A stretch of 58,911 bases of DNA, filler included. It is 5 parts of 5 records of this genome, joined end to end, with 100 filler letters (N's around TTAATTAATTAA, not from the genome) between each part and the next. Parts side by side here need not be neighbours in the genome. Positions count along the whole stretch, not along the records: positions 53,177 to 58,911 come from SRR31147125_41423; 4 more parts are not named here. One strand, written 5' to 3'. The notes beneath the pieces were generated by a model. That model did not search any database and was not told where the DNA came from. It saw nothing but the letters and a program-made list of their open reading frames with translations. A program made the translations under genes and the position numbers. Of this stretch, positions 37,190-58,911 are shown piece after piece. The number at the start of each line of letters is the position of its first letter. The stretch's first letter is position 1.

Positions 37190-38653
37190 TTATTTGTCAC
37201 AGGCGATGTGGGTATCTCCTCTGACCATTTTATCATCATATTGTATGGTCACGGTGACATTCCGTCTGGCTTCAATTTCAACAATCTCTTTTCTTCTATT
37301 GTTCAATAGGTATTCCGCGACATCTTTTGGAAGCGTCGCCGTCACGGTGTTGATATCCCCTTTTATTGTTTTCAAATTCAACTGTCTCATGAAAGCAAGA
37401 GCTTGATTTTCGATTGAAGGAATCATTCCCCTTCCGTTGCAATGTCGGCAGGTTGAAAAATTTCCAAAGGTGATAGAAGGTCTAAGCCGTTGTCTGGACA
37501 TTTCCAGAAGTCCGAATCGAGAAATATTGCCGACTTTCGTTTTGGCTTTGTCGGATTTAAGGTGTCTTTTCAGTACCCTGGGAATCTCCGCTTTATGTTT
37601 TGCATCTTTCATATCAATGAAATCAACGACAATGAGTCCTCCCATATCCCGCAATTTCAATTGGCGTGCCACTTCTTCTGCTGCTTCCAGATTAGTATGA
37701 TAAGCGGTTTGCTCGATATTCTTCATAGAGGTGGACTTGCCGGAATTGACATCAATGGCAACCAACGCTTCTGTCTGATCGATGACAATGGCACCGCCGG
37801 ACTTCAGGGGGACTTGGGTGTCGAAGATGGATGCAATCTGACCTTCCAATTGGTGCTTGGTGAAAATCGGTTTCTCTCCCCTAAACAGCTTGACAATTTT
37901 TTGCTGTTTGGGAGCAATTACCTTGATGAAATCTTTTACTTCCTTGAATACGTCGGAATCATCAATGAGAATTTCCGACACATCTGCGGTAAAGTAGTCC
38001 CGAAGGGATCGGACGGCAAGATTTTGTTCTTTGTAAAGAAGGGAAGGCGTTGGGCTGCCAATGCTTTTTTCATTAATGTTTTTCCACACCCTGAGAAGAT
38101 ACTTGAGATCATTGGAGAGCATGGTTTTATTGGCATCGCGTCCTGCGGTCCTGACAATCAAACCAAACCCTTCAGGAAGTTTCAGTCCTTCAACAATGGT
38201 TTTGAGCCGTTTGCGTTCATCCTCATTCTCGATTTGCCTGGAAACCCCTTTGGTGGTACTGCCGGGCATGAGAACGGAGAGTCTGCCCGGAAGGGAGATG
38301 AATGTGGTGAGCATGGCCCCTTTATGCATGATGGGCTCTTTAGTGACTTGGACGATGAGTTCCTGCCCCTTTTTAACAATGTGGGATAGGCTACGGTCTC
38401 CGGTGTCGCTGTCTAAAAAGTAATCACTGTGAATTTCCTGTTTTTGCAGGAATCCGTTTTTCTCTTCACCATAATCCACAAAAACCGCCTGAAGGCTCGG
38501 TTCGACTCTGACGATGGTACCTTTATATATATTACCCTGGGTCATCTCCCTGGATGCACTTTCCAGATGGAGCTCTTCCAGTTTATTGTCTTTCACGGTG
38601 ACGATTCTGCACTCACCGGAATCCAGGGCATTAATTAATATCTTTCTTGTCAT
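37190..38653 (-). CDS. rne: Ribonuclease E/G family
   Basis: GNIYKG, QAVFVDYG, IDVNSG and RDMGGLIVVDFIDM. Confidence 0.9.
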   Translation of the reverse strand: MTRKILINALDSGECRIVTVKDNKLEELHLESASREMTQGNIYKGTIVRVEPSLQAVFVDYGEEKNGFLQKQEIHSDYFLDSDTGDRSLSHIVKKGQELIVQVTKEPIMHKGAMLTTFISLPGRLSVLMPGSTTKGVSRQIENEDERKRLKTIVEGLKLPEGFGLIVRTAGRDANKTMLSNDLKYLLRVWKNINEKSIGSPTPSLLYKEQNLAVRSLRDYFTADVSEILIDDSDVFKEVKDFIKVIAPKQQKIVKLFRGEKPIFTKHQLEGQIASIFDTQVPLKSGGAIVIDQTEALVAIDVNSGKSTSMKNIEQTAYHTNLEAAEEVARQLKLRDMGGLIVVDFIDMKDAKHKAEIPRVLKRHLKSDKAKTKVGNISRFGLLEMSRQRLRPSITFGNFSTCRHCNGRGMIPSIENQALAFMRQLNLKTIKGDINTVTATLPKDVAEYLLNNRRKEIVEIEARRNVTVTIQYDDKMVRGDTHIACDK

Positions 38654-38970
38654 TCAATGCGTATCTCGCATCCTCCTCAATTCTTTGCCAAATGTATTTA
38701 GGGGTTTTCAGCCATGGAAAGCAACTACCGTACAGAGCATGAAAGAACCTGAACCATTCATCGAGTGCTTTTCATACGAAAACAATCCGGTACGCATAAG
38801 CTGCTGATAACAACTATAAAATTGTGACAGACAAGTCAAATTATTTGTGAACAATCTCAGCGGCGGATGCTTGCTATTTACGGGATATTATGGCATCTAT
38901 GGATCTCTTAAATTTATTATCAATAAAAACTGTCCCCTGAGTTTGCGGGTGACGGAAGGTTGAATGAAGG

Positions 38971-41640: not shown

Positions 41641-41664
41641 TGTGGGGTAAGAAAAAAGATCTAC

Positions 41665-42222
41665 ATGGAGGACCGATTGTATTCAATTGGGATGAGAAAA
41701 CAAAACGGCAAGTTAATGATATTGGCATTTGCCGTGGTGATATCGATGCTTCTATGTCTTGGGTGCGGGTATTCACTGCATAGCGGCGGAACCCTCCCGG
41801 GAGGAACAAAGCGGGTCTCTGTTTCGCTGTTTAAAAACAGAAGTTCGCAGATTGGTGCGGAGGCCTCGATTACATCTGTTTTGATTGAAGAGTTGATGCG
41901 CCGAAGCCGTGTGGAGATATGCACTCACCCGGATGATGCAGATGCCGTGATTCAAGGGGAAATCCTCTCCATTTCGTTTAGTGCATTGAGTCGTACATCG
42001 GATGATGCGGTTTATGAGAGAACGGTAACTGCTGTAGTCGGTCTCAAAATGGTTGCGCGGTCGGGGAAAACGCTTTTCTCCCTTCCCAGGCTGGCGGGAA
42101 GTGATACTTACGATGTGCTGGATGATAACGAAGCGGATGAGGCTGCCAAAAGAAATGCGGCTGAAGATGTTTTCCATCGGTTGGTACAACGGATTGTCAG
42201 TCGAATGACTGATGATTTTTAA
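41665..42222 (+). CDS. lptE: LPS assembly lipoprotein LptE
   Basis: Lipobox LGCGY directly after leuS. Confidence 0.8.
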   Translation: MEDRLYSIGMRKQNGKLMILAFAVVISMLLCLGCGYSLHSGGTLPGGTKRVSVSLFKNRSSQIGAEASITSVLIEELMRRSRVEICTHPDDADAVIQGEILSISFSALSRTSDDAVYERTVTAVVGLKMVARSGKTLFSLPRLAGSDTYDVLDDNEADEAAKRNAAEDVFHRLVQRIVSRMTDDF

Positions 42223-42387
42223 TGGGAACTTTTTGTGAATTTTTGTTGAAAATATATGTTTTAATTATGGATGAAATACACCGGATGCTTTCTTACTGTA
42301 CGCACATTTCGGTTCAGTGACTATTCAAAATATTTGCAACGCTTCTTTTGTGAGGTTGTTTTTATGAGGGGTTGAATCTGAAGGTTG

Positions 42388-42443
42388 CAAAAAAAAGAGA
42401 GAAAAGGATTGAGTTGATTTCGTCCTTTTCTCTCTTTTGTTTG
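42388..42443. terminator. Bidirectional terminator between lptE and rpsT
   Basis: AAAAGAGAGAAAAGGA / TCCTTTTCTCTCTTTT inverted repeat. Confidence 0.65.
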
Positions 42444-42453
42444 TCAACCTTAA

Positions 42454-42571
42454 AGGGCTCACAGCAGCTTATGATTTACCATTATTCCAGAGCTGAAGGC
42501 CCCCTCTCCATTCATGGAGAGGAAGATGAAGGGGGGGAGTGGTAAATCAATACAGTAATAGCTGACGCCCT
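42454..42571. mobile_element. MITE/REP-like element, copy 2
   Basis: AGGG...TGATTTACCA / TGGTAAATCA...CCCT ends and core CCCTCTCCATTCATGG. Confidence 0.65.
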
Positions 42572-42624
42572 AAAGGCCATCGTCAGCTATTTTGAGATCA
42601 AAATAATTTGAGTCAATTGACTTT

Positions 42625-42879
42625 CTAGACATTTACATATTTGTTGAGTCTTGAAATTTTTCGGGAGGCAGTGTTCCGGTGAAGAACGCCTTTTTTTGCT
42701 GCCTTAGCAATGACAGACTGTGCCTCTCTCATCAAATCTGCAGTATTCTCAGCACCCTCATCTTTGGCAGTCTGAACTTTTTTAATGGCCGTTTTCATAG
42801 CAGATCGGGTGGATTTGTTTCTCATTCGTTTTACTTCATTTTGTTTTGCGCGTTTCAGTGCTGATTTGTGGTTTGCCAA
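42625..42879 (-). CDS. rpsT: 30S ribosomal protein S20
   Basis: MANHKSALKR...HRNTASRKISRL; TTG start with AAGGAG RBS. Confidence 0.97.
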   Translation of the reverse strand: MANHKSALKRAKQNEVKRMRNKSTRSAMKTAIKKVQTAKDEGAENTADLMREAQSVIAKAAKKGVLHRNTASRKISRLNKYVNV

Positions 42880-43022
42880 CGTCTACTCCTTAAATAATGT
42901 TTAATTGCATTGGGTTTTGTATAAATAATTGTAATTCTGAAATTAAAATATAACTTTGTTTGTATTTTAAAGCATAAAATTTTAATTTTTTTTATTTCTT
43001 TTGTCAAGGAAAATATAAGATT

Positions 43023-44568
43023 GTGTTAAGAACTGCGGGTTTGATCAGTCTGGCAACGTTGTTCAGCCGGATCCTTGGAGTTGTAAGGGATGTGACCCTT
43101 GCGATGCTTCTTGGTGCAGGGGTGTCAAGCGATGCCTTTTATATCGCTTTTAGGATTCCCGACCTCTTTCGAAAACTGTTTGGGGAGGGGGCGCTCAGCT
43201 TCTCATTTATACCTGTTTTTACAAAGTTGATGAGTGTTGATGGAAAAGATGCTGCCTTTACCATGGCTCGAACCATTTTTTTCTGGCTGATGATGTTCTC
43301 CATCATTCCGGTATTGATGTATCTAATTGGAGAGGGGACCGGCATCTCTTTTTTTCCATTTTTTATGATGAAACACCGGTGGATAAGCTGGTTTTTGCGC
43401 TTTCACGTATCATGTTTCCCTACACGGGTTGTATTTTGTTTATGGCGGTCTGCGTGGGGATTTTGAATAGTCTGGAGCATTTTGCAGCGCCTGCTTTGGC
43501 TCCGGTTCTTTTTAATCTTGTGATGATTTTTTCAGCCTTTTTTGTGGTTCCTCATTTGAGTCATTTGAATCATCCAGCGGTTATTCTGGCATGGACTGTC
43601 ACAATCGGGGGAGGGATCCAGCTTTTGATATTCCTGCCGATTCTGGTCAAAAAAGGATTTCAATGTTTCGGCCGTTTTCAGCTGATTCACCCGGAAGCTG
43701 TCAACGTTGCCAAATTGGGATTACCGGCCCTCTCCGGGCTTGCCGGATATCAAGTCAATCTGTTTGTTTGCACATTTTTAGCCGCATTTTTGTCGGAGGG
43801 AACGGTTTCCTATCTGTATTATGCGGATCGATTGGTCCAATTTCCTTTGGCTCTGATTACGGTTTCCCTCTCCACACCTCTTTTTCCGGAACTTGCTAAA
43901 AAGGTTGCCGTTGGAGATGTTCAGCATGCGTCATCGCTTTTCACCCAGGGGGGCGTTTGGTGCTGTTTATTACAATACCGGCCATGGTAGGATTGCTCAT
44001 CCTGAGGGAACAGATTGTTGCGCTTCTCTTTTATCAAGGGGCGTTCGGCCTCCGGGATGTCCATAACACCGGTGTGATTTTAATGTTTTTTTGTGTGGGA
44101 CTGTGGGCATTTTCAGGGGTTCGTTTTTATGTTCCACTTTATTATGCGCTGTCCGATATGAAAACTCCTTTGCAGGCAACATTGGCAGCGGTCATGTTTA
44201 ATTTGATTTTGTCCAATGTGTTGATGAAAATAATGGGTGCAAGCGGACTTCCCCTTTCCATATCCTTGGCCTCTGCGCTTAATTTTTTCATATTGCATCG
44301 GGGGCTTTGGATGCATCGAATTTACTTTAGATGGAAGGAGGTTGGGGAGACGCTTTTGAAATCCTCATTGCTTTCCATTTTAATGGTGTTTATGGTATAT
44401 CCCCTATCTCAAATGCTTTGTCCCCCGGAAATATTCATGGAAAAAGGGCGGATGGGAATTGGTGTTCTGTTATCGGTACTTTTAGGTGGCGTAGTATATT
44501 TAGGGCTTGCTTTTTCTTTTAAGACAGAAGAGGTCAAGATACTCATTGCCGGGGTTTTAAAAGATTGA
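43023..44568 (+). CDS. murJ: Lipid II flippase MurJ, two frameshifts
   Basis: SRILGVVRD, AFRIPDLFRKLFGEGA and YLYYADRLVQFPL; breaks at T and G runs. Confidence 0.92.
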
Positions 44569-44595
44569 GTGAGAGGATATGGATAGGGTTTTATA

Positions 44596-44913
44596 ATGAA
44601 TATGAGTAGATTTGAATTGATCGAAAAACCAATCGGCTGGGCAGCGCTATTTGTTATGTTGATGTTGGTATTTTTCACACTGTATGGGGAAAACGGCTAT
44701 TTTGATCTTCGGAGAATAAGATTTCAAGAACAGGCGATTATTCAGGAAAATCAGCAGATTGAATGGGAAAATAGAGCGCTGGAGCGTAAAATAGCAAGGC
44801 TTAAATCCGATTTGAGTTACATTGAACATATTGCAAGACATGAACTGGGAATGCTGGCAGAGCATGAGTTGGTGTTTCGATGTCAAAACGGAGGGAACAA
44901 TTCTCAAAACTGA
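44596..44913 (+). CDS. ftsB: FtsB/DivIC septum formation initiator
   Basis: TM helix, GENG, coiled coil and YIEHIARHELGM. Confidence 0.85.
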   Translation: MNMSRFELIEKPIGWAALFVMLMLVFFTLYGENGYFDLRRIRFQEQAIIQENQQIEWENRALERKIARLKSDLSYIEHIARHELGMLAEHELVFRCQNGGNNSQN

Positions 44914-44979
44914 AACTGGTAAAATGTGATCATAATAATCCAGAACAATCTTAAGTACCTGAACACAAGTTGTCTGGTA

Positions 44980-45079
44980 NNNNNNNNNNNNNNNNNNNNN
45001 NNNNNNNNNNNNNNNNNNNNNNNTTAATTAATTAANNNNNNNNNNNNNNNNNNNNNNNNNNNNNNNNNNNNNNNNNNNN
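44980..45079. other. Artificial contig spacer
   Basis: N run with TTAATTAATTAA. Confidence 0.98.
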
Positions 45080-45176
45080 AAAAGAACTTTTCGCCAACAA
45101 AGACGTTGACGGTGGTTTAATTGGTGGTGCTGCTTTAAAAGCTGAAGACTTCGTTGGAATCATCAACGGATTTTAG
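45080..45176 (+). CDS. tpiA: Triosephosphate isomerase, C-terminal fragment
   Basis: [24 protein letters not shown]. Confidence 0.9.
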
Positions 45177-45191
45177 TATCAAACTACAATA

Positions 45192-45231
45192 TAAAAAAAG
45201 CCATTCGCAGTTTGCGAATGGCTTTTTTTTA
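45192..45231 (+). terminator. Intrinsic terminator after tpiA
   Basis: AAAAAAAGCCATTCGCA / TGCGAATGGCTTTTTTTT. Confidence 0.9.
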
Positions 45232-45296
45232 TGCCTGAATTTTGGAACCAGCTCACCTTTACTATTAACTTTTCAAACATTATGTAAAAGCCTCAC

Positions 45297-45326
45297 TTTG
45301 TTTCCAATTGGAATTTCATAAATTTG
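45297..45326 (+). promoter_or_regulatory. Bacteroidota-type promoter
   Basis: TTTG 45297-45300, 18 nt spacer, TAAATTTG (TAnnTTTG) 45319-45326. Confidence 0.55.
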
Positions 45327-45380
45327 TTTTCAGGATTATTTTACAACCAAAAAATCTTGAGTTTAGGAAAACCTATTTAT

Positions 45381-45827
45381 ATGAAAAATTGGACATTAAT
45401 TATAACACTACTACTTTTCGTTCTGATTAGTTGTAATTCAAAAAATAAATCGGCCGAGGTGGCATCGTACACTTACGAAGAAGAAAAAACAGAACTGAAT
45501 GCAGAACTGAAAGCTCTTGTTCCGGAATGGGTAAAAGAAGGCGTAATCTGCTATGGTTTAATTATTCAGATTGATAAAGACAAAAATCCGGTGAAAGGAA
45601 AACCGGTTAAAGCCAAGGTTGTTGAAATAAGAACTGATGGTGTTATAATGAAAGCACTGGAAGCAGTCAGCCTCGTAAAAGCTAAAAACTGCACACAAAT
45701 GGGTTTGTCGAAAGGCCAAACCTGGGAAGAAAAAGAAGGCGATTTCTATGTTACAAAAGAAGAGGCCATTAATGCACTAAAAGCCCAGAATATTTATATG
45801 GCATCGGGTAAAGCAACGGTTGATTAA
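45381..45827 (+). CDS. Hypothetical lipoprotein
   Basis: MKNWTLIITLLLFVLISC lipobox. Confidence 0.75.
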   Translation: MKNWTLIITLLLFVLISCNSKNKSAEVASYTYEEEKTELNAELKALVPEWVKEGVICYGLIIQIDKDKNPVKGKPVKAKVVEIRTDGVIMKALEAVSLVKAKNCTQMGLSKGQTWEEKEGDFYVTKEEAINALKAQNIYMASGKATVD

Positions 45828-45872
45828 TCCTGCCAAATCAAAATGTTATAAACCCAACCAAAACTACTATAA

Positions 45873-47821
45873 ATGAAAAAACAAACCTTCAACTGGCCGA
45901 GAGTTATAGCACAACTGGGTGTCATTGCCTTTGTTCTGTTACTTTCATTTTTCCCGAAACTGATAGGAATTTCAACTCCCGATTTTGAAGCATATTGCCC
46001 CTTTGGTGGAATGCAGGCCTTGGGGAGTTACCTGTTAAACCAGGCGCTTTCGTGCACCATGACAAGCACCCAAATTGTAATGGGTGTTTTGCTTTTTGTT
46101 GCGGTTCTTGTTTTTAGCAAATTGTTTTGCTCGTACATTTGCCCCATTGGAATAATTAGCGAATGGCTTGGCAAAATTGGCGAGAAACTAAAAATACGAT
46201 TCTCCATAACCGGAATTGCAGACAAAGTCCTTCGGGCATTAAAATATATTCTACTCTTTATTACACTCTATTTCACCCTGCAATCGAACGAGTTGTTCTG
46301 CAAAAATTCGATCCATATTATGCTCTAACTTCCGGGTTCGATACTGATGTGGTTATTTGGTATGCAGTCATTTCGATAACACTTGTTATTCTCGGCTCAA
46401 TCTTTATTCGCTTATTTTGGTGCAAATATTTATGTCCTCTGGGGGCAATTTCAAACATTTTTAAATTCTCGCTCTTTTTTGTGGCTCTTATTGGCATTTA
46501 CCTCATTTTACTAAAAGCTGAAATAGAAATAAGTTACGTTTATCCGCTGGCAGTGGCCTGTATTGGAGGTTTTATTATTGAAGTTACAGGCCAACAAAGC
46601 CGAATATTCCCGCTTGCAAAAGTTACCCGAAATAGCCAATCGTGTATTAATTGTAATTTGTGCTCCGAAAAATGCCATCAGGGAATTGATGTTGCATCGT
46701 TACAAACCGTAAAACATGTAGATTGTAATTTATGCGGCGATTGTTTGTTGGTTTGCCCCGTACAAAATACGCTCACTTTAAACAAATCGTCAAGATTAAA
46801 ACGCTTGCCTGTAATTGCAACAGTAGTTTTGGTTATAAGCGGAATTGCTCTCGGTAGTTTTTGGGAAATTCCAACCATCGACGAAAAATGGGCCGAACCT
46901 GAAGTAATTTCAGAAGCGGCAATCTTTTCGCAAGCCGGATTGAAAAATATAAAATGCTTTGGCAGCTCGAAAGCTTTTGCCAATAAAATGCGAAAAATTA
47001 ACGGCGTGTACGGCGTAGCAACTTATGTAAAAAACAACAGGGTAAAAATATATTACGACGATAATATTCTTAATGAAAATAAGATTCAAAAATTACTATT
47101 TTCTCCTCAAAAACAGAAGTTAAAAACACTTCATAAAAAAATTGAAACCGTTTACGGTGTTACACTTCAACTAGAAAATTTCTTTGATTTATACGACTTT
47201 AACTATCTCTCTTTATTGCTACAACAGAAAACCAATGCTGTTGGACTAATTTCGGAATATGCCTGTCCGGTTATTGTTAAAATTTACTTTCCGGCAGAAA
47301 TTGAGAATAAGAAAGAATTGAAATCAACTATTGAAGCAGAAATACTAGAGCTTGAAACTACAAGTGGGATAAAGGAAATTGAACTGAAATACGAAGTTGT
47401 TGGTACTCCTGAATATTTCATTATTAACCGCGGCGAATATCTTACATCACTTTTTACTCCTTACCAGAACTCCTTTAATTTTATAGAAAATTATTCTGAA
47501 AAGGTAATTGCTGATTACGTTCTCTCCTTGGACAAAAACAAAAAACAAAAGAATAAGTTATCGTACCTGGTAAGCCATATTTCAAACGACACCGGAGTGG
47601 TTCAGTTTAGAACTATCCTTGATAAAAATTTCGAAGAGATTGTTGTAATTTCGTATATTGATACAATAACTAACATAACAAACATTAACGAAGCTTTACT
47701 TGCCGACACCCTGATTATTAACTACAGCAGCGGGCAAACAGGTAAAGTTTCCAATATGTTTAATTTCTCGGAAGAAATAAAAACTGTAAATTCAAAGAAT
47801 AATACCGAATTAAAAGATTAA
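45873..47821 (+). CDS. Membrane polyferredoxin (NapH/CcoG-like) with HMA-like C-terminal domains, frameshift near 46303
   Basis: EAYCPFGG, FCSYICPIG, WCKYLCPLG, CINCNLC and CNLCGDCLLVCP; then KCFGSS...INGVYGV and EYACPV. Confidence 0.8.
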
Positions 47822-47840
47822 TTCAATGAAAGAAATGCCT

Positions 47841-50189
47841 ATGAAAAATTTTACTTTAATCTTTATTTTTAGCCTGTTAACAATTATATCAACTGCTCAA
47901 AACCCTGAATTTAACTGGCAGACAACTGAGTTAAGCACCGATAATAATTTAAAAGCAATGGCCGTAAACGACAACGAAGCTGTTATTGCCGGTTATAACT
48001 ACAGTTTTTTAAAATCAACTAATGGTGGAGAAAAATGGGATACTATTGATGTATTCAATCCTCAGTACAATTTCCCTGATATCAGTATTAAAGGGAACGT
48101 TGGTTATATTATTGCCCAACGGAAAAAATTGTATGATGCATCACCCGATGTTTACACCAGTGGTTTTATAATGAAAACCGAAGATGGTGGCCTAACCTTA
48201 TCAGTTATCGATAATATGGTTTTAGGTCTTGATAACGATCCGGCTTTAAGTCCAACCGACACGCTTGGTCATTCACTCGATTTTCAATCTATTGAAGCCG
48301 TTAACGATACGGTAGCATTTTGTGCACTCCGCTGGAATGAGTATCAGAAAACCGGAAACAATAGCCACTCCGGGATATTTAAAACCAAAGATGGTGGCCA
48401 AACCTGGATGAATGTAAGCAGCGATTTGGATGGAGATGTTACAACAGTAATTGAATTTAATGGCGACGAAGGTTTTGCAGGAGGAAAAGAGCACTTATAT
48501 ACATTGAGTATTGAATCGGATACGGTTACCGATATCTTTTCTGCAATGCCCGGAGATGGCTCCGACTACATTAGTGACATTACCATTATTGACGATAATG
48601 AGTTATATATTGTCACAACTACCGATAGTATTTACAAATCGTTGGACGGCGCGGCCAGCTTCTCAAAATTCCCAACGGTAAAAGGCGGATGGGATATTGC
48701 AAAAATTAACGACACAACCTTAGTATCAGGAGGAGGTTCCAATAAATCGTATGTTTCAACCAATTCGGGAGAAAGCTGGAATTCGTTGGGTATAGACGAA
48801 GTGATTTGGGAAGTACCCGGAGTTATTAACGATTCAGTTAATTTTCTTGCGGATGCTGCTATCTACAAGATTGCTGTTTCTGATTTAGTCTCTGGTAATT
48901 ATACTTTTAGTGTTCAACAAGTAGGCAACAACAACCTGCATAAAGTTCACATTTTAAACGATTCTGAAATGCTACTTGTTGGTAATGATGCAACTTTCTT
49001 AAAAACCAATGATGCAGGATTAACCTGGAATTCAATAGACTTACCGGCAATTCCGGAATTGCAAGACCTTTACGAAGAAATTGATTTTGATGGACTGGCA
49101 ATGAATGGCGAGGAAGGTTTTGTAAGTTTTAACCGGTTTAAATTTGTTGATTACGATGACAAAGACGACATAAACTGGTCGGGAGGAATTTTATATACCG
49201 ACGACAATTGGGAAACGTGGGATGATTTGGATATGGCTAAAATTGGCAAAGAAAACGAAGCTGATGTAACCATTAATCCTAATCATGTGGATTGCAACGG
49301 AGTTTCGCCTAAAGTTTTTACATACGAAGATGGTGTACTGCTTGCCTATGTAAAATGGTACAGTTTTGTTGGTGACAGAGAAGATCATTCTCGTGTATAC
49401 AAAACGTTGGACAAAGGGAAAAACTGGACAGCGATTACTGAAGATTTAGGTTTGAATATTATAAACGACATTGAAGTACTTGGCGACACCCTTTACATTG
49501 CAGGAAAAACCACATTATTAAAATCTACTGCGGCCAATTTAAAGTCGACTTCAGAAGTAATTGAATTCGAGGATTTATATCCAAACCTCGATGAAGGCGA
49601 AGACGATAATATGTATATTAATGCCCTTGTTGCCGAAGATGATGAATTGTTTGTGGTTACATCGCTCGATAGTTGCCACAGGTCGAACGACGGTGGAACA
49701 ACTTTTACTACTTTCAGTAATTCAAAAGGAGGTAACGACATTTACCGTTTCGATAAAAACTCGTTTATAATATTGGGAGCTTCCGGGAAATCGTGGTTCA
49801 CCAACGACACAACAACATGGATGGATTGCCAAACAGCAACTACTTCTTATGCTATTGGAGGAGAATACAACGGTAAAATTTACGGACTTGCAAGAGGAGT
49901 AATTTATACAACCGGTGTTGATGAACTGGATTTAAAAACTGCCGTTCCAATATTGTTTGAAAAAGCAAATTTGAATATTGCTTACAGTCCATCAACAATC
50001 GATGTAATTTCAACAAAAGGAGATATTGAACGCTGTGCACTTTATTCAATAACCGGAAAACTGGTATCGATTGTTGAACCAAACAACCGAATTTGCAGGT
50101 TTAATAACAACGAGTTCCAACCCGGCATTTATATAATTAACTCGTTTGTTGAAGGAAAACGATATACTAATAAAGTTGCTTTTAGATAA
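47841..50189 (+). CDS. T9SS-secreted BNR/YCF48-like beta-propeller protein
   Basis: Signal peptide; repeated KSTNGGEKW, KTKDGGQTW and KTNDAGLTW boxes; C-terminal LYSITGKLV...PGIYII...KVAFR. Confidence 0.8.
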   Translation: MKNFTLIFIFSLLTIISTAQNPEFNWQTTELSTDNNLKAMAVNDNEAVIAGYNYSFLKSTNGGEKWDTIDVFNPQYNFPDISIKGNVGYIIAQRKKLYDASPDVYTSGFIMKTEDGGLTLSVIDNMVLGLDNDPALSPTDTLGHSLDFQSIEAVNDTVAFCALRWNEYQKTGNNSHSGIFKTKDGGQTWMNVSSDLDGDVTTVIEFNGDEGFAGGKEHLYTLSIESDTVTDIFSAMPGDGSDYISDITIIDDNELYIVTTTDSIYKSLDGAASFSKFPTVKGGWDIAKINDTTLVSGGGSNKSYVSTNSGESWNSLGIDEVIWEVPGVINDSVNFLADAAIYKIAVSDLVSGNYTFSVQQVGNNNLHKVHILNDSEMLLVGNDATFLKTNDAGLTWNSIDLPAIPELQDLYEEIDFDGLAMNGEEGFVSFNRFKFVDYDDKDDINWSGGILYTDDNWETWDDLDMAKIGKENEADVTINPNHVDCNGVSPKVFTYEDGVLLAYVKWYSFVGDREDHSRVYKTLDKGKNWTAITEDLGLNIINDIEVLGDTLYIAGKTTLLKSTAANLKSTSEVIEFEDLYPNLDEGEDDNMYINALVAEDDELFVVTSLDSCHRSNDGGTTFTTFSNSKGGNDIYRFDKNSFIILGASGKSWFTNDTTTWMDCQTATTSYAIGGEYNGKIYGLARGVIYTTGVDELDLKTAVPILFEKANLNIAYSPSTIDVISTKGDIERCALYSITGKLVSIVEPNNRICRFNNNEFQPGIYIINSFVEGKRYTNKVAFR

Positions 50190-50203
50190 GCTATTATTAC
50201 TAA

Positions 50204-50249
50204 AGTCATTCTGAGAATTCTTGATTTACACTTGAATCTCAGAATGACT
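50204..50249. repeat. REP-like palindrome
   Basis: AGTCATTCTGAGA / TCTCAGAATGACT 13-bp inverted repeat. Confidence 0.55.
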
Positions 50250-50277
50250 ATTTGAAACACTCCACCACAACCAGCCA

Positions 50278-53076
50278 ATGTCTGAAAAACGAAATAAAAA
50301 TCTCGTTGCCCTGTTTTTTGTGTTCCTATGCACTTTAACAGTAAATGCCCAGACAAAAGTTACCGTTAGTGGAATAATTACCGACGCCCAAACACACCAG
50401 CCCGTCATTTATGCCAACGTTGCTTTCCCCGAACTAGGCATCGGAACTTCATCGAACGAAAAGGGAGAATTTTTAATTAAAAATGTTCCGGTCGGCACCC
50501 ACTCCTTTTCAATTAGTTATGTTGGGTATAAAGAATATTCGGTGAACCTAAGGTTGGAAAAGGATATTGTTCTGGAAATCAAACTGCAGCAACAATCGTT
50601 AGGATTAAAAGAAGTGATTGTAACTGCCGAAAATTCAAAAGAAGGAACAACATCAGCAAAAATAAACAGCAATGCCATTGAGCATGTTCAGGCTTCCAGC
50701 TTAAAAGAAATAATGCAGCTCATTCCGGGCAACCTGGCAGAGAATCCAAATTTAGCTGATCCTGCAAAAATTAGTATTCGCGAAGTTGATACCGATATTA
50801 ACAGTGCTTTGGGAACTTCGATTGTTGTTGACGGAATTCCGCTATCGAACGATGGAAATATGCAACAAAGTATCGAGCCCCTCAATAACTTTTCATCAGC
50901 GGCAGGAAGCGGTTTCGACCTTCGGCAAATTACGGTTGATAATATCGAATCTATTACGATTGATGTGGGAATTCCTTCGGCAGAACACGGCAACCTGACT
51001 TCTGGAGCAGTTCATATAAAAACAAAAACCGGGGGCTCGCCCTATTCGGTAAAAATGCAGGCCAATCCGCACACCAAACAGTTTTCGTTGGGCAAAGGTT
51101 ATTTGCTGCATAAAAATTCAGGCGTAATTAATATCAATGCCGGCTATACCAATTCATACGAATATCTTTGGAAACAAACCAATCAGTTTGAGCGAATAAA
51201 CGCAACAACAAAATACACCAATACTTTTTTCAGAAACAGCAATCCGCTAAATATCCAATTTAAAGCAGACTATCTTCAGTCGCTCGATGGCCTAAAATGG
51301 GATCCGGATATGAAAGCCGAAGAAGAACATTACGCGCAAGACCAAAGAATGCAAACAAAACTTTCGGCATTGTGGTCGCTCAACAAATCATTTTTTAAAA
51401 GCATTTCGCTCGATGCCGGATTCAGCAAAACATGGCAAGATGGTTTTGAAAAAACGCTGGAGGCCAACTCTTCAGGAGCAAACATTATTATTTCTTCAAC
51501 AGAAAATGGAGAATACGAAGCATTGTACGGTCCGGCAAGTTATTATTCCGAAGTAAATTACGATGGCCGCCCTTTCGACATATTTGCAAAAATAAAGGCT
51601 AAATTTTACCATAAAAGTAATTTGTTTACCAATAACATTCTGCTTGGTGCCGAATGGCGCACCACAGGAAATAATGGTGAAGGCCGCACTTTTGATGTTA
51701 CGCAGGCTCCGGCCGGAACAAGTTTACGACCACGTCCGTTTTCCGATATTCCGTCGTTAAACCAGTTGTCGTTTTTTGCCGAAGATAAAATTGAAGTAAA
51801 ACTGGGATCTACCCAACTTAATATCATGGCCGGAATAAGAATGGACAACATTCAGCCCAATGGCATTTTTTCAAGCGATGGTAACCTGAGTTTCGATCCA
51901 CGCCTAAACATTCGTTACGAACTGCTGAACAGAAACCAAAACTATTTACTGCGAAACATGAGCTTGCGCCTGGGATACGGCAAAACAACAAAAGCACCTA
52001 CTCTTTCGCACCTTTATCCCGATAAAGAATACAACGACATTATAAATTTTAATTATTACCCCGAATTAGTAGTTGCCACAACCGAGATACTGGAAGATAC
52101 CCGGAACTACAATTTGGAAGCTGCCAAAAGCGAAAAATTTGAGGCGGGAATTGATTTTCAGCTGGGAAAAATAAAATCGCGAATTACCGGTTTTTACGAA
52201 AAACACGAAGGTGGTTTTATTCTCGACCAGGATTATATACTAATGGAATATAAACGTTACGAACAAGCAGACGCCGGATTGTATCCTTATTTTATTGAAG
52301 GGGATGGAGTATTTTATGACGATCCTGAAACCGGAGAACAAATTGCGGTTCCGTATGAATTAGATTACAAATACAAAGACTACGGCATTTTCCAAAATGC
52401 AAGCACCCGGATTAAACGAGGTGTAGAATACAGCATAAATTTTGGAAAGATAGAAGCCTTACGAACTTCGTTTATTTTAAACGGAGCATGGCTACAAACC
52501 GAATCGTACACCACCGACGCTCCATTTTGGGACGACATTGAATATACTGTTTACGAAGGCAACACCAGCACCCAGGAAAAATTCCTTGTTAAATTTCCCA
52601 ATGAAAACGGGTATGGCGTTGTTAAAGAGCGATTGAATTCGAACCTGAATATTATTACACATATTCCGGAAATTAAAATGCTGGTTACATTAACCACACA
52701 AATGCTTTGGTACGAAAAAGACTGGCGAAAAATTTACGACGAATACAAATTATATACACTGAACGAATTACGCGATTATCTAAATCAACCCAATTTATTC
52801 AGCACGCATGACGAAGAAGATTTTTATTACTACCTGCCTGTAAGTTACCGCAATTACGACAACATTGAATACACTTACAATATCAGCGATTTTGAGAATT
52901 CGTTACATCAAACAGCTATTGATTTCATAAAAAAATACAGGTTCGAAAAGCAAACATTATCGCCACTTGTTTTGTGTAACATCAGAATTTCGAAAGATAT
53001 TGGGCAGCGCTTTAAACTGTCGTTCTTTGCCAATAATTTTCTGAATATTCGCCCATGGGAACTAAAAGAACGCGAC
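50278..53076 (+). CDS. TonB-dependent receptor, truncated at contig end
   Basis: CarboxypepD_reg-like N-domain; LKEVIVTA; plug IVVDGIPLSND and GIPSAEHGNLTSG; barrel strands. Confidence 0.92.
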
Positions 53077-53176
53077 NNNNNNNNNNNNNNNNNNNNNNNN
53101 NNNNNNNNNNNNNNNNNNNNTTAATTAATTAANNNNNNNNNNNNNNNNNNNNNNNNNNNNNNNNNNNNNNNNNNNN
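53077..53176. other. Artificial contig spacer
   Basis: N run with TTAATTAATTAA. Confidence 0.98.
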
Positions 53177-53350
53177 CCTGAGGCTAACCAAAATGAATCG
53201 ATAAAAAAATTAATAACAAAATACCAATCAACAAAACTATAAGAAATGTAACTTACACCTTAAATTTATTCATCAACTGGAAAACGGTTTTCTATTTGAT
53301 AATTCAGGTGTGAATTCATGAAATACCATATAAATTAACAACTTAAACGA

Positions 53351-54109
53351 ATGAATTTCAAATTACCTTTTATTCCTGAACGCCCCGATAAACCAAGACA
53401 ATCTGGACTTACAATGGTTATGGATAAAGGACTTAGCACTCGGGAAGCTGAAAATATGTGCGAGGTAGCATCATCTAATATTGATCTTGTAAAACTAGGT
53501 TTTGGAACAGGACTTCTGACACCAAATACAAAAGAAAAAATAAGAATATATAAAGATGCAGGTATTACTCCATATTTTGGAGGAACTATGTTTGAAGCTT
53601 TTATTGCTCGAGACATGTTTGATGAATTCCGCAATTTCATTGCTGAGTGCGGTGTTGATACTGCAGAAGTTTCTGATGGTGTTTTACCTATTCAGCATGA
53701 CAAAAAGTGTGAATACGTTCGTTCTCTCTCTAAAGACTTTACAGTACTTTCGGAAGTAGGCACTAAGTTAAAAGGAAAAGAAATTAGCAATGAAGAATGG
53801 GTTTCCTGGATGAAGAAAGAACTAGAAGCAGGTGCCTGGAAAGTAATTGCTGAAGCCCGCGAGAGTGGCAATATAGGAATATATAAAGAAGATGGATCTG
53901 CCAACAGCCAATTGGTTCTGGATATTCGTAAACAACTAGATGCTGATAAAATACTTTGGGAAGCACCACTTAAAAGTCAACAAGTTTGGTTTATCAAATT
54001 ACTTGGATCAAATGTGAACACAGGTAATATTTGCAGTACTGAAGTAATAGCTTTGGAGACTTTGCGCTTAGGGCTTCGTGGAGATACGCTATTAAGTTTT
54101 CTACCGTAG
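53351..54109 (+). CDS. comA: Phosphosulfolactate synthase
   Basis: KPRQSGLTMVMDKG, VKLGFGT, VIAEARESG, WEAP and ETLRLGLRGDT. Confidence 0.9.
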   Translation: MNFKLPFIPERPDKPRQSGLTMVMDKGLSTREAENMCEVASSNIDLVKLGFGTGLLTPNTKEKIRIYKDAGITPYFGGTMFEAFIARDMFDEFRNFIAECGVDTAEVSDGVLPIQHDKKCEYVRSLSKDFTVLSEVGTKLKGKEISNEEWVSWMKKELEAGAWKVIAEARESGNIGIYKEDGSANSQLVLDIRKQLDADKILWEAPLKSQQVWFIKLLGSNVNTGNICSTEVIALETLRLGLRGDTLLSFLP

Positions 54110-54237
54110 TCTATTTCAAAATTGAACCAAAAAATTAACATTGACAATATACTACTGACAATCAACACATAAACAAACAATCCAAATCAAAACACTGTCC
54201 TTATTTAGATTAAATAAGAATTTACTGCAATTTTTCT

Positions 54238-54267
54238 TTTGTTTTAAAAATCTAGTACCTATTTTTG
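54238..54267 (+). promoter_or_regulatory. Bacteroidota-type promoter for the leader and sulfur operon
   Basis: TTTG 54238-54241, 18 nt spacer, TATTTTTG 54260-54267. Confidence 0.55.
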
Positions 54268-54299
54268 AATCGTATTTAAAGCACAAATATTTTTAACAA

Positions 54300-54392
54300 A
54301 TGAATTTTAATACTTCTGAAAATAAAATGATGAATATGGCATGCACAATGATGTGTATGTATAGTTATTGTTTTGAGCAGAAGGAAAAATGA
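54300..54392 (+). CDS. Met/Cys-rich leader peptide, 30 aa
   Basis: MNFNTSENKMMNMACTMMCMYSYCFEQKEK; 9 of codons 10-24 are Met or Cys. Confidence 0.8.
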   Translation: MNFNTSENKMMNMACTMMCMYSYCFEQKEK

Positions 54393-54424
54393 TTATGATA
54401 TAATATTGAAATCAAGATAAACTT

Positions 54425-54458
54425 AAAGCCCTTCTGCAAATGCAGAAGGGCTTTTTTT
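54425..54458 (+). terminator. Attenuator terminator
   Basis: GCCCTTCTGC-AAAT-GCAGAAGGGC plus T7, 13 nt before hemA; 5' arm also complementary to GCAGAAGG 54377-54384. Confidence 0.85.
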
Positions 54459-54471
54459 ATTAAAAGAATAT

Positions 54472-55367
54472 ATGGTAGAACTATTAAAAATAAATCAGAC
54501 TCATTCATTGAATACAAGAGAACTGATTTTACAAAAATACCAAAAAAGAGAAATAACAAATGGTGTGTTTCTTCAAACCTGCAATCGAATTGAATGGTAC
54601 AAAGGGAATGGTTATATCTCTAAAGATTTGGCACTCCATTTATTCCGTTTAGTCTCTGGACTTGAATCAACATTAATCGGAGAAACTGCAATTACGGGTC
54701 AAGTTAAACGAGCATATCAATTAGCACATAAAAATAGCTACCTAACAAAGAGTTTGCATAAACTATTTCAAACATCCTTTTTTGTAGCAAAAGAGTAAGA
54801 AGGGAAACAGGTATTTCAAAAGGAGCAATGTCGCATAGTCAAGCTGTTGTTCAAATTCTGAAGAATAAAAACATTGATTTTAGCAATCAGGTTGTTACTT
54901 TTATTGGAGCAAATAGTCTTACGGAAAACATAATCAAGTTTCTAAATACAAAAGGAACAGACTCCTTTTTTATAGGTAACCGAACCTTTGATAAGGCTAG
55001 TTCACTAGCAGATAAATACGATGGTGAAGCTTTTCAATTTAATAACTTGACAAGCATTCTTAAACAAACCGATATTCTAATTTCAGCAACATCGGCACCT
55101 CACTTAATACTTAAAAAAGAAGAACTTCCAACAGTCTACCCTAAACTAATTTTCGACTTAGCAGTTCCTCGAGATATTGATCCGCAAATAGCAGATATTT
55201 CAAGCATTAAATTGTATAACGTTGAACATATTGAACAAAAAATTATTATAAATAGAGAGTTGCGCTCTGAAGAAGTACTAAAGGCAGAAGCCATTATTGA
55301 AGAAGAATTAGAACTTTTCTTTTCAAAGTTCAACCAACTCAATTACCAACAAAACTTTGCAGGATGA
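54472..55367 (+). CDS. hemA: Glutamyl-tRNA reductase, short form, frameshift near 54790
   Basis: TCNRIE, HLFRLVSGLES..IGE, NRT, ISATSAPH and DLAVPRDID. Confidence 0.88.
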
Positions 55368-55594
55368 GAGAGAAAGCATATAGGAGCATTGTAAAGACAG
55401 TTTCGTGGAGAACACTGGGAACGATTGATACCATTATAATTGCATGGTTAGTTATTGGGAAACTTGAATTTGCAGTTACAATTGGCGGTGTAGAACTGTT
55501 TACTAAAATGATTTTATACTATTTCCATGAACGCACTTGGAATAAAATAAAATTTGGAAAAATAGATGACTCAGACATTGAATATCAAATATAA
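55364..55594 (+). CDS. DUF2061 membrane protein
   Basis: RSIVKTVSWRTLGT...KMILYYFHERTW. Confidence 0.85.
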   Translation: MREKAYRSIVKTVSWRTLGTIDTIIIAWLVIGKLEFAVTIGGVELFTKMILYYFHERTWNKIKFGKIDDSDIEYQI

Positions 55595-55595
55595 A

Positions 55596-56063
55596 ATGAA
55601 GAAAAATTATCTACCCATAGCAATTAATATCGCTGATGAAAAAATCCTAATTATTGGAGGAGGAAAATCAGCTTGGAGCAAAATCCGTATTCTTCAACGA
55701 TTTAATGCAAATCTGGAAGTAATTGCGAAAGATGTTTGTGATGAGATAAAAGAAAGTGGAATCCCATTTAAAGAAAAAGCTTATGAAAAGATTGATTTAA
55801 ATGGTTTTCTTATGTTCTATTCATGCACCAATAATGCTGAGCTGGATAAACAAATTGCAAAAGATGGGAAAGAAGCAGGAATACTTGTGAATATACATGA
55901 TAATCCGGAGCTATGCCAGTTCGTATCCCCTGCAATCTATCAGAATGAAAATATTAGAGTTGCCGTAAGTTCTAACGCAACAGATGTATTTTCTTCAATA
56001 AGCATAAGAAATGAAATACAAGAATATTTTGAAAATAAAACCCAAAAAATTGAAGAAAAATGA
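55596..56063 (+). CDS. Precorrin-2 dehydrogenase (SirC / CysG N-terminal type)
   Basis: YLPIAINI, ILIIGGG and VNIHDNPELCQFVSPA. Confidence 0.85.
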   Translation: MKKNYLPIAINIADEKILIIGGGKSAWSKIRILQRFNANLEVIAKDVCDEIKESGIPFKEKAYEKIDLNGFLMFYSCTNNAELDKQIAKDGKEAGILVNIHDNPELCQFVSPAIYQNENIRVAVSSNATDVFSSISIRNEIQEYFENKTQKIEEK

Positions 56064-57847
56064 GTGTCAATTTAAACCCCTTAAATGATAGCCAGATTAA
56101 AGCACTTTCACAATTAAGTGAAGGTCTGGGGAAGGAACAGTTGATTTGGTTGAATGGTTATTTTCAGGGACTTGCCTCAATAAGTGGGAATGGAGTTTTA
56201 CCTGTATCAAACATCTCAGAAGATGAATCTTCTATAGCAAAAATTCCGTTAACAGTACTATACGGAACTCACACCGGACGTTGTGAATCCTTAGCTAAAA
56301 AGCTATGTAAAATTGCTTCAACTTCTGGAATTGAATGCAAAGTTCATCCAATGGACGATTACAAAACGAAAAAATTGAAGGAAGAAAAAAACCTGTTTGT
56401 AATAGTTAGCACGCATGGAGAAGGCGAACCTCCAGAGATGGCTGAAGACTTCCATGAATTTATTATGGGCAAAAGACTTCCAAAATTGGAAGGTTTAAAC
56501 TATTCAGTTCTTGCGCTTGGCGATAAAAGCTATAAGTTATTCTGCCAAACAGGAATTGAAGTTGATAAAGCTCTAAAGAATGCAGGCGCAACAGAAATAC
56601 ACCCTCTTGTAAAGTGTGATGTTGATTTTGAAGAAGATGCTGCAAGCTGGACAGAATCAGTAATAAAAGAGTTGGCAAAGAATGCTCCAGCTCAAACACA
56701 AACTTCAACACAATCAGGTTCTTCTTCAGAAAGCAAAACTTACACTAAGAAGAATCCGTTTAGAGCCACAGTTCTTGATAAAACAAAAATTACCGGACGT
56801 GATTCAGACAAAGAAGTATATCATCTTGAGTTATCGTTAGAAGATTCTGGAATTATTTATGAACCTGGTGATTCTTTAGGAATAATAGCTGAAAACCCAC
56901 CTATTTTGGTTGAACAGCTTATTGAGAAACTTGGTATTAATAAAGCGGAATTAGTTGAAACGAAAGATGGACAAGTGAGCTTTGAAGAAGCTTTAAAACA
57001 TCATTTTGAAATTAGCCTGCTAACACGTGATATTATTCATAAATATGCTGATAAAACTCAAAATACCGAGATTAAAAAGATACTTGAAAATGATGAACTT
57101 TTAGATCAATATTTATACGGACACGATGTATTGGATCTACTAACAGAATTTCAATATAACTTTAATGCCAAATCATTTATTGAATTGCTAAGACCCCTAC
57201 CCGCTCGCTTATACTCTATTTCATCCAGTCAACTGGCTGTTGAAGATGAAGTACACATTACCGTTTCCCGTGTAAACTATAACAACAAGGGGCGTGAACG
57301 TGTTGGTGCTTGCTCTGGTTTTCTTGCCGATCAAGCTGAAGTTGATGACGAGTTATTAGTCTATATCGAAAAGAATCCAAACTTCAGGCTTCCTCAAAAC
57401 GGAACACCTATTATTATGGTTGGTGCAGGTACCGGAATTGCACCATATCGTGCTTTCATACAAGAGCGTGAAGCCAATAAGCTAAAAAGTGAAAGCTGGT
57501 TATTTTTTGGAGATCGACATTTCAATTCAGATTTTTTGTATCAACTTGAATGGCAAAAGTTATTAAAGAAAGGTTATCTGGGTAAAATAGATCTGGCTTT
57601 TTCACGCGATCAGGAAGAAAAAATATATGTACAGCATAAACTAAAAGAAAATGAGAAAGAGCTTTTTAACTGGCTGGAGAATGGTGCCAACTTCTATCTC
57701 TGCGGTGATATGAAACACATGGCTAAAGATGTAATGCAAACACTACTTGAAATTATTCAGGTACAAGGAGGACTTTCTCCTGAGAAAGCAAAACAATATT
57801 TCAAAAAGCTAAAAAAAGAAAAACGCTTCCAGATAGACGTATATTAA
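56060..57847 (+). CDS. cysJ: Sulfite reductase (NADPH) flavoprotein
   Basis: STHGEGEPP, RLYSISS, GAGTGIAPYR and DFLYQLEW. Confidence 0.95.
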   Translation: MSVNLNPLNDSQIKALSQLSEGLGKEQLIWLNGYFQGLASISGNGVLPVSNISEDESSIAKIPLTVLYGTHTGRCESLAKKLCKIASTSGIECKVHPMDDYKTKKLKEEKNLFVIVSTHGEGEPPEMAEDFHEFIMGKRLPKLEGLNYSVLALGDKSYKLFCQTGIEVDKALKNAGATEIHPLVKCDVDFEEDAASWTESVIKELAKNAPAQTQTSTQSGSSSESKTYTKKNPFRATVLDKTKITGRDSDKEVYHLELSLEDSGIIYEPGDSLGIIAENPPILVEQLIEKLGINKAELVETKDGQVSFEEALKHHFEISLLTRDIIHKYADKTQNTEIKKILENDELLDQYLYGHDVLDLLTEFQYNFNAKSFIELLRPLPARLYSISSSQLAVEDEVHITVSRVNYNNKGRERVGACSGFLADQAEVDDELLVYIEKNPNFRLPQNGTPIIMVGAGTGIAPYRAFIQEREANKLKSESWLFFGDRHFNSDFLYQLEWQKLLKKGYLGKIDLAFSRDQEEKIYVQHKLKENEKELFNWLENGANFYLCGDMKHMAKDVMQTLLEIIQVQGGLSPEKAKQYFKKLKKEKRFQIDVY

Positions 57848-57962
57848 CCCACACTTAAGTGGCTTCCCGAACTCCTGACTACCGTCAGTCAGTTGTTTAA
57901 TGATAGAGATGCCGAAGCAAGTTTAACATAGCTAATAAGAACCAAGAATAAAGATTTAAATA

Positions 57963-58911
57963 ATGAGCGATACAATAGATTGGACAACACTTTCAGAAGT
58001 TGAAAAATTAAAATACGATAGCAACTATTTACGAGGTACACTAGTTGAAAGTTTGGCAGACCCAGTTACCGGAGCTATTGCCATTGGCGACACACAAATG
58101 TCAAAATTTCATGGGATTTACCAGCAGCACGATCGTGATTTGGAAAAAGAACGCAAACGCCAAAAGCTGGAACCAGCCTTCTCATTCCTGATCCGAGTTA
58201 GGCTTCCCGGTGGAGTTGCTACGGCAAAACAATGGTTACAGATGGATCACCTTGCTGATGAACATGCCAATGGGACATTGAAGCTTACAACACGCCAAGC
58301 ATTTCAATTACATGGTGTAATTAAAAAGAAATTAAAGCCAACCATTCAGGGTATAAACGATGCACTTATGGATACCATTGCCGCATGTGGAGATGTAAAT
58401 AGGAATGTAATGTCACATGCAAATCCAGCAGAATCTGAACTACATGCTGAAGTGTACCAATTGGCAAAGGATATTTCAGCACATTTAACACCACAAACAT
58501 CAGCATATCATGAGATTTGGCTGGACAAGCAACTTGTTGCAGATTCAAAAGAAGATATTGAACCTATTTATGGAAATCGTTATCTTCCTAGAAAATTTAA
58601 AATGGCTATTGCAATCCCACCATATAACGATACCGATATTTTCTCACAAGACTTGGGGCTTATTGCCATTGAAGAAAAGGGAAAACTTATTGGATACAAT
58701 GTTAGCGCTGGTGGAGGTTTTGGTTCAACATTTGGAGTTCAGGAAACTTACCCACGATTGGGAAGTGTAATTGGTTTTTGCACCCCGGAGCAAGCAGTTG
58801 ACGTGGCTGAAAAAGTAGTTCTTGTTCAAAAAGATAATGGAGACAGACAAAACCGGAAGCATGCCCGCTTAAAGTATACTATTGATGAAAATGGTTTGGA
58901 TTGGTTTAAAA
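57963..58911 (+). CDS. cysI: Sulfite reductase hemoprotein, runs off the window
   Basis: Manual translation [40 protein letters not shown] and YLPRKFK. Confidence 0.95.

Follow-up and report, generated by a model that had tools for sequence, protein, structure and literature searches.

What controls the siroheme and sulfite-reductase operon with which the DNA analysed here ends, and what part in that control falls to the short open reading frame (ORF) in front of it, which is crowded with methionine and cysteine codons? The DNA, called the window below, is a stretch of 58,911 nucleotides (nt) in which five contigs are placed end to end; the true context of the leader ORF (54300-54392) is the last contig only (53177-58911). 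An earlier reading of the letters alone, the sequence-only reading, had proposed an attenuator of the trp/his type at this locus. The analysis supports that proposal, and each of its sequence-level predictions testable here was borne out. Judged from its sequence, the leader is likely to be a ribosome-mediated (leader-peptide) transcription attenuator of the siroheme and sulfite-reductase operon, reading charged tRNA-Met and charged tRNA-Cys.

Leader ORF and RNA folds of the candidate attenuator

The leader ORF at 54300-54392 (plus strand, as are the RNA regions and operon genes given below) comprises 30 codons and a TGA stop codon (54390-54392), and its translated product is MNFNTSENKMMNMACTMMCMYSYCFEQKEK. 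Codons 10-24 (54327-54371) form the putative regulatory block. As had been noted from the letters, the block contains six Met codons (ATG; codons 10, 11, 13, 17, 18 and 20) and three Cys codons (TGC, TGT and TGT; codons 15, 19 and 24). Seven of the nine ATGs within the ORF are in frame. With nine Met/Cys codons in 15, the block is the sole outlier among the 584 ATG-initiated ORFs of at least 15 amino acids that the window contains in its six frames; the richest stretch of 15 codons has 0-5 such codons in 582 of these ORFs, six in one and nine in the leader ORF. Given the combined ATG, TGT and TGC frequency of 0.048 in the window, the binomial probability of nine in 15 is ~ 5e-9. In the computed folds, the leader start codon is unpaired and its surroundings are A/U-rich. 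The runner-up, ORF 37022-37165 (plus strand), has six Met/Cys codons in 15, with the run CPSCCCDC. It is located on the opposite strand in the gap between two minus-strand genes, and its Met/Cys richness is probably due to chance.

The RNA that follows the regulatory block provides the complementary strands of the putative attenuator. A terminator hairpin at 54425-54454 has 13 base pairs, seven of them G-C, a 4-nt loop and a calculated energy of -22.3 kcal/mol. The terminator scan shows that it includes a core of 10 G/C-rich pairs, which corresponds to the 10-bp terminator of the sequence-only reading. Its 5' arm (region 3) spans 54425-54437, and its 3' arm (54442-54454) together with a T7 tract (54452-54458) makes up region 4 (54442-54458). 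Region 2, the candidate 5' strand of the antiterminator, is GCAGAAGG at 54377-54384, within leader codons 26-29. It is the exact complement, over 8 nt, of CCTTCTGC (54430-54437) in the terminator 5' arm, as the earlier reading had stated. An exact complement of at least 8 nt to this arm within the 151 nt upstream was obtained in 17 of 20000 dinucleotide shuffles, and the sole other nearby copy of GCAGAAGG is the 3' arm of the terminator itself, at 54442. The 2:3 helix together with the hairpin that it encloses has an energy of -11.4 kcal/mol.

The distance from the T7 run to the hemA start codon (54472) is 13 nt, again as previously given. This start is fixed by homology: the 108-amino acid ORF that begins there aligns residue 1 to residue 1 with P0002 (298 amino acids, 76% identity), and the consensus of 30 short-hemA relatives starts MVEL. 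With only 13 nt between the terminator and a start fixed in this way, there is no room for a promoter, and the operon is therefore expressed by read-through only.

The leader RNA as a whole (54290-54465, 176 nt) folds at -53.1 kcal/mol, compared with a shuffle mean of -26.95 kcal/mol (z score -6.9; none of 200 shuffles as good). Its minimum-free-energy structure combines a 1:2 helix, an inner hairpin, a spacer hairpin and the terminator. Region 1 (CUUCUG, 54313-54318) pairs with 54378-54383 in this ribosome-free fold. The inner hairpin (54323-54375) surrounds the Met/Cys codons, and its stem 54339-54360 was also detected by the terminator scan; in the modeled structure it may serve as a pause or timing hairpin. 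The spacer hairpin is small and occupies 54390-54414.

The accessibility of region 2 was examined by folding the transcript cut at 54440 with an assumed ribosome footprint, -15 to +14 nt around the A site, kept unpaired. The 8-pair 2:3 helix is present when the ribosome is placed at codon 10, 13, 17 or 20, and it also forms when there is no ribosome. With this footprint, a ribosome at the stop codon or at codon 24 masks region 2 and the 2:3 helix is not possible. The folds thus agree with the trp/his-type geometry that the sequence-only reading had described, in that region 2 is masked at the stop codon and free at codons 10, 13, 17 and 20. According to the model, productive stalling would probably take place at codons 10-20, which include six Met and two Cys codons.

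The proposed mechanism begins with a ribosome that would translate the 30-codon leader while RNA polymerase moves on. When Met-tRNA and Cys-tRNA are both ample, the ribosome would reach the TGA at 54390-54392 and place its footprint over GCAGAAGG (54377-54384). With region 2 covered, the terminator hairpin (54425-54454) with its U7 run would form, and transcription would end 13 nt short of hemA. If either charged tRNA runs low, the ribosome would stall at the Met/Cys codons 10-20 (54327-54359) and leave GCAGAAGG free to pair with CCUUCUGC (54430-54437) once that strand has been made. The 5' arm of the terminator would then be taken, and the polymerase would read through into hemA-DUF2061-sirC-cysJ-cysI. 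In the case of no translation, CUUCUG (54313-54318) could pair with CAGAAG, which would again favor termination. The sequence itself shows the elements, their statistics, the alternative pairings and a partial conservation of these; from them we infer leader translation, ribosome stalling, the kinetic choice between the helices and the promoter. The predicted function of the operon is consistent with such a switch: its products would make siroheme and sulfite reductase, which would supply sulfide for cysteine and subsequently for methionine.

The leader in other sequencing runs and in diverged relatives

Five public runs, with no RNA run among them, are listed for 53900-55400. Four of them (X1-X4) contain part of the stretch and were compared at 80% likeness; in X2-X4 some portions of it have no cover. 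Near-identical contigs cover 54167-54466 in run X4 of study P2 (300 nt, two differences), 54276-54560 in X1 of study P1, which may be the source (285 nt, two differences), 54364-54565 in X2, also of study P2 (202 nt, one difference) and 54032-54284 in X3 of study P3 (one difference). The differences are A>G at 54229, T>A at 54305, which changes codon 2 from Asn to Lys, and T>C at 54471. The Met/Cys codons and the stems are unchanged. The leader sequence is real, being confirmed by contigs of four runs from three studies.

Runs X2-X4, from two studies other than the possible source, also contain at least three forms of diverged relatives, and the joints at which these depart from the window were read as coming from other organisms. 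Two of the forms match 54299-54360 only, i.e., from one base 5' of the start codon through codon 21, with flanks that are unlike the window. Over these 62 nt, form b (records 9, 19 and 24, in X2, X3 and X4) has six differences and form a (record 8 in X2) has eight. Form b is the one form with a 5' flank that can be read cleanly, and there a TGA stands in frame two codons upstream of the common ATG. On the 3' side of 54360 the frame of form b remains open for at least 10 further codons, the first of which would be a Cys codon (TGC), provided that the T matched at 54360 is retained. In form c (X3 and X4, records 20 and 25) the match to 54326-54364 has 3-5 differences. It is followed by 78 unlike nt, in place of 76 in the window, and by a second match, free of differences, to 54441-54460, which includes the terminator 3' arm and the T tract. 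Read in the leader frame, the loose end of form c before the Met block gives M-Y-K-F-S-S-N-M-T. The N-terminal peptide therefore differs from that of the window, but the distance of nine codons from the ATG to the Met block is the same.

The gene that follows the leader is not the same in all relatives. In form a, which X4 has as record 27 and X2 at a depth equal to that of record 8, 22 other nt connect position 54460 with 55360, the start of DUF2061. The leader and terminator of this relative apparently stand directly before DUF2061, with no hemA between them. The joint at the terminator arm of the hemA-less relative was seen in runs X2 and X4, as window segments 54443-54460 and 55360-55381. 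To judge by these joints, the leader-terminator cassette would seem to stay with the operon though the first gene differs. The relatives likewise appear to retain the start of the ORF, its frame, the Met/Cys block and the terminator 3' arm while their surroundings diverge. A search for Met/Cys-rich short ORFs in related genomes had been suggested as a check on the attenuator, and such recurrence is supported in part by the pieces of at least three diverged forms, in which the ORF start and the block are kept.

Searches of larger collections gave little. The leader peptide, compared by phmmer with 1.84 billion representatives, matched one 620-amino acid protein at 23% identity, which was taken as compositional, and the ESM Atlas yielded no usable match. 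Leader DNA compared with plasmids by blastn gave chance matches only (E of at least 0.04). A 179-amino acid piece of hemA retrieved only five distant hemA loci of other phyla from genome contigs, with identities of 31-39%. A metagenome scan with the alignment of the 30 short-hemA relatives, which carries generic glutamyl-tRNA reductase (GluTR) motifs, retrieved 80 loci, mostly ordinary hemA genes of 30-37% identity. Upstream of the six best of them (L006-L011) there is neither a window-like layout nor a Met/Cys-rich ORF. In L007 and L011 hemA is not the first gene, and the upstream DNA of L006 is only 82 nt long. The scan of viral contigs produced no match, and a tblastn comparison of the short hemA and of CysI with plasmids found no Bacteroidota cys operon.

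Alternative explanations and known systems

Several points weigh against the attenuator. The full-length RNA at equilibrium always adopts the terminator fold; the choice between the helices must therefore be kinetic. In the trp attenuator of E. coli the helix energies are similar, and there too the terminator is the equilibrium end state. A stall at Cys codon 24 would not be productive in the model, so the nine Met/Cys codons would not all be alike. The relatives are known from aligned pieces and from 30-nt loose ends of contigs, some sides being only 20 nt long. The literature searched contained no experimentally shown methionine-sensing leader. Finally, the promoter at 54238-54267 would follow from a consensus match with a motif that, taken alone, is not significant in the window. 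The Bacteroidota promoter consensus has TTTG at -33 and TAnnTTTG at -7, and the pattern match at 54238-54267 consists of TTTG, an 18-nt spacer and TATTTTTG. The window has four matches to TTTG-N18-TATTTTTG where 1.95 would be expected, and as many as four were also obtained in 15 of 100 shuffles. Of the promoter claimed by the sequence-only reading the motif stands, but it is not enriched. Transcription from this site would start near 54273, a few tens of nt 5' of the leader ORF.

Control might be exerted on translation instead of, or besides, transcription, with the hairpin occluding the hemA start and a stalled ribosome remodeling the RNA to free initiation, as with the mycobacterial polycysteine short ORFs. 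An extended helix around the terminator (54416-54421/54456-54461) ends ~ 10 nt 5' of the hemA ATG, as such control would have it, and the genes of this contig are not preceded by Shine-Dalgarno-like motifs; in organisms of this kind initiation depends on unstructured, A/U-rich starts. In addition, the validated mycobacterial Cys sensor acts on translation (bioRxiv 10.1101/834739; here and below, statements on cited papers refer to the portions of them that were consulted). Nonetheless, a G/C-rich stem of 13 pairs followed by U7 is a textbook intrinsic terminator, and the hemA start codon is unpaired in all computed folds, which makes translational control improbable. Slightly less probable still is a riboswitch or a protein-controlled attenuator that responds to a sulfur metabolite or an RNA-binding regulator, the ORF being incidental. 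The strong structure of the leader (z score -6.9) would suit such an element, and the sulfur and methionine genes of other phyla are often under S-adenosylmethionine (SAM) riboswitches. Against it, no Rfam family was matched at the gathering thresholds anywhere in the window. With permissive settings the best scores over the leader were 29.8 for PyrR (threshold 54) and 21.6 for Phe_leader (55); the sole SAM-type match, SAM-SAH with 15.9 (40), is located inside hemA. Moreover, the enrichment in Met/Cys codons follows the reading frame and is extreme, and the relatives retain the frame and the start position despite nucleotide divergence.

The same layout of a promoter-like site, an ORF and a strong terminator could also belong to an independent small gene that encodes a Met/Cys-rich metal-binding or precursor peptide and has its own promoter and terminator, the operon being reached by leaky read-through. 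Conservation of the Met/Cys block in the relatives would be in line with a functional peptide. However, no modification, export or immunity genes are nearby (comA is upstream and hemA downstream), the peptide searches gave no relatives, and such a gene would leave unexplained both the 8-nt antiterminator at the end of the ORF and the placement of the unit 13 nt before a promoterless operon. We regard it as unlikely, to the same degree as a riboswitch. The least credible explanation is that the hairpin terminates comA and that the ORF and the complementarity are coincidental. The hairpin is indeed the sole strong terminator-like site downstream of the comA stop codon (54109), and the terminator scan found none between that stop codon and the terminator of the leader. 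Yet the hairpin is 316 nt past the comA stop, the codon and complementarity statistics oppose chance, in a relative this terminator arm stands 22 nt ahead of DUF2061, and hemA would have no promoter.

As a leader-peptide attenuator, the preferred explanation, the element has well-known counterparts. The classical leader-peptide attenuators are those of Proteobacteria: trpL, hisL, leuL, thrL, pheL and the ilv leaders. In common with the trpL/hisL type, the present leader has a short ORF rich in codons for the pathway product, the pairings 1:2, 2:3 and 3:4, an intrinsic terminator immediately 5' of the first gene, and a stop codon placed such that the terminating ribosome masks region 2. Unlike that type, it combines Met and Cys codons and precedes a siroheme and sulfite-reductase operon in a Bacteroidota-like host, with no Shine-Dalgarno motifs and no match to an Rfam leader model. 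The S-box and other SAM riboswitches of Met and Cys genes sense SAM by means of an RNA aptamer. They share with the present leader the attenuation of transcription of sulfur amino-acid genes by a choice between terminator and antiterminator, whereas no aptamer model matches here and the proposed sensor is the translating ribosome.

Leaders that are rich in Cys codons have been described in other phyla. The predicted uORFC-8-2 of Rhodobacterales is a tandem-Cys leader with a terminator upstream of cysS (Brewer et al. 2021, PMC8632094). It too is predicted to work by ribosome-mediated attenuation: its leader ORF contains Cys codons, and a terminator stem and a U run follow. It has only two tandem Cys codons, near positions 14-15, and no Met codons, and it controls the gene of the Cys-tRNA synthetase in Alphaproteobacteria; in the present leader there is no tandem Cys, and the target is hemA through cysI. 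The leaderless polycysteine short ORFs of mycobacteria were shown to be cysteine-responsive translational attenuators (Canestrari et al., bioRxiv 10.1101/834739), and Cys-codon leaders without terminators were predicted upstream of cys operons of Actinobacteria (Seliverstov et al. 2005, PMC1262725). In these as in the proposed mechanism, stalling on Cys codons of an upstream short ORF switches on operons of cysteine metabolism. The mycobacterial and actinobacterial leaders have consecutive Cys runs, leaderless mRNAs and no intrinsic terminator, and act on translation by unmasking a ribosome-binding site. In contrast, the present leader has three non-adjacent Cys codons along with six Met codons and a strong terminator with an antiterminator. 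Unlike the mycobacterial short ORFs, it would be preceded by a 5' untranslated stretch, the mRNA being non-leaderless to judge by the promoter-like site, and it has no Shine-Dalgarno motif.

Within the phylum of the Bacteroidota-like host, signatures of leader-peptide attenuation are reported for Flavobacterium psychrophilum, in front of operons for amino-acid biosynthesis (Guerin et al. 2021, PMC9723704). The main text of that paper, as far as consulted, names neither the operons nor the codons, and its supplements may or may not list a Met/Cys case. For B. thetaiotaomicron, the consulted part of PMC7366714 goes no further than short ORFs, not validated, within long 5' untranslated regions, and the consulted parts of PMC2965389 and PMC5737381 contain nothing on a Met/Cys leader of this sort. 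No Met/Cys leader attenuator of a sulfite reductase turned up in full-text searches of the literature, in keeping with the sequence-only reading, which knew of no described dual Met/Cys attenuator for sulfite reductase operons in Bacteroidota. The kind of attenuator is thus known, whereas the Met and Cys codon set, the sulfite-reductase/siroheme target and the phylum are not described in the literature searched.

The mechanism is a classic one, yet no case was found that reads methionine, or methionine together with cysteine, nor one that controls sulfite reductase in Bacteroidota. Regulation and translation initiation in Bacteroidota are unlike those of model organisms, with no use of Shine-Dalgarno motifs and with different promoters. 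If the attenuator is true, sulfate assimilation and siroheme synthesis would be tied to both sulfur amino acids without a regulator protein or a riboswitch, and annotators would have a simple signature by which to spot unannotated mini-genes of this sort. A wider proposal, to which we give slightly less than even chances, is that the leader belongs to a phylum-wide, ribosome-read sulfur amino-acid regulon of Met/Cys leaders in Bacteroidota. The regulon would include the first natural leader to sense charged elongator tRNA-Met, and its cassette would be portable as the first gene changes. Such a regulon would fill the place taken elsewhere by SAM riboswitches or by regulators of the CysB/MetJ type, and a methionine-reading leader within it would be a real addition to the classical mechanism.

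The operon, its neighbors and the make-up of the window

The genes named by the sequence-only reading, hemA-DUF2061-sirC-cysJ-cysI, were all found in that order; hemA is not intact in the window, where it is split by a frameshift. The first gene, assigned by homology to a short glutamyl-tRNA reductase (hemA-like), spans 54472-55367. It is followed by the small membrane protein DUF2061 at 55364-55594 (PF09834, 77.7 bits), a SirC-like precorrin-2 dehydrogenase with the siroheme synthase N-terminal domain at 55566-56063 (TIGR01470, 98.6 bits vs a cut-off of 62.3), and cysJ, the flavoprotein subunit of assimilatory sulfite reductase, at 56060-57847 (TIGR01931, 760 bits vs a cut-off of 668). The gene of the hemoprotein subunit, cysI (57963-58911), is cut by the end of the window, and its first 316 amino acids score ~ 452-456 bits.

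The short hemA family has ~ 298 amino acids, and the best identity to the window protein is 64%. The few members that are named by source are from Bacteroidota (Bacteroidales, Prevotella and Tannerella), and the third-best match is a cluster named uncultured Draconibacterium. The frameshift is located at the A run 54789-54792 and leaves two ORFs, 54472-54798 and 54828-55367. An additional A behind 54788, seen in contigs of X1, X2 and X3, would restore a whole hemA of ~ 298 amino acids. The presence of the extra A in three runs indicates that the frameshift is an assembly error or a strain variant and thus not a feature of the operon.

Upstream of the leader, comA (53351-54109) encodes a homologue of phosphosulfolactate synthase (PF02679, 280 bits; TIGR03849, 252 bits vs a cut-off of 280). 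This sulfite-consuming enzyme adjoins the sulfite-reductase operon. The third codon positions of contig 53177-58911 have a very low GC content (GC3) of 0.22-0.28.

The five contigs of the window are separated by linkers of the form N44-TTAATTAATTAA-N44 at 20181-20280, 29552-29651, 44980-45079 and 53077-53176, and gene neighborhoods across the linkers are therefore artificial. One such neighborhood involves the ORF of a TonB-dependent receptor (50278-53124), which runs across the linker toward the comA contig. The contigs differ strongly in composition. Segments 1-20180 and 29652-44979 have a GC3 of 0.45-0.70 and frequent Shine-Dalgarno-like motifs, and contain genes for a TRAP transporter, LeuRS, LptE and SecDF. 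Segments 20281-29551, 45080-53076 and 53177-58911 have a GC3 of 0.22-0.40 and almost no Shine-Dalgarno-like motifs; their genes include those of glycoside hydrolases and a SusC-like receptor, and the cys operon. A chimeric assembly was considered as the cause of this GC mosaic and was rejected in view of the N linkers. Two organisms may be mixed in the draft or bin.

No tRNA genes are present in the window. The gene of the lipid II flippase MurJ is divided among three ORFs that overlap (43023-43466, 43379-43990 and 43957-44568), with further frameshifts, which suggests an error-prone assembly. Another hairpin, at 45188-45230, is flanked by A8 and T8 and has an energy of -15.4 kcal/mol; it is terminator-like on both strands and is located ~ 100 nt before ORF 45324-45827.

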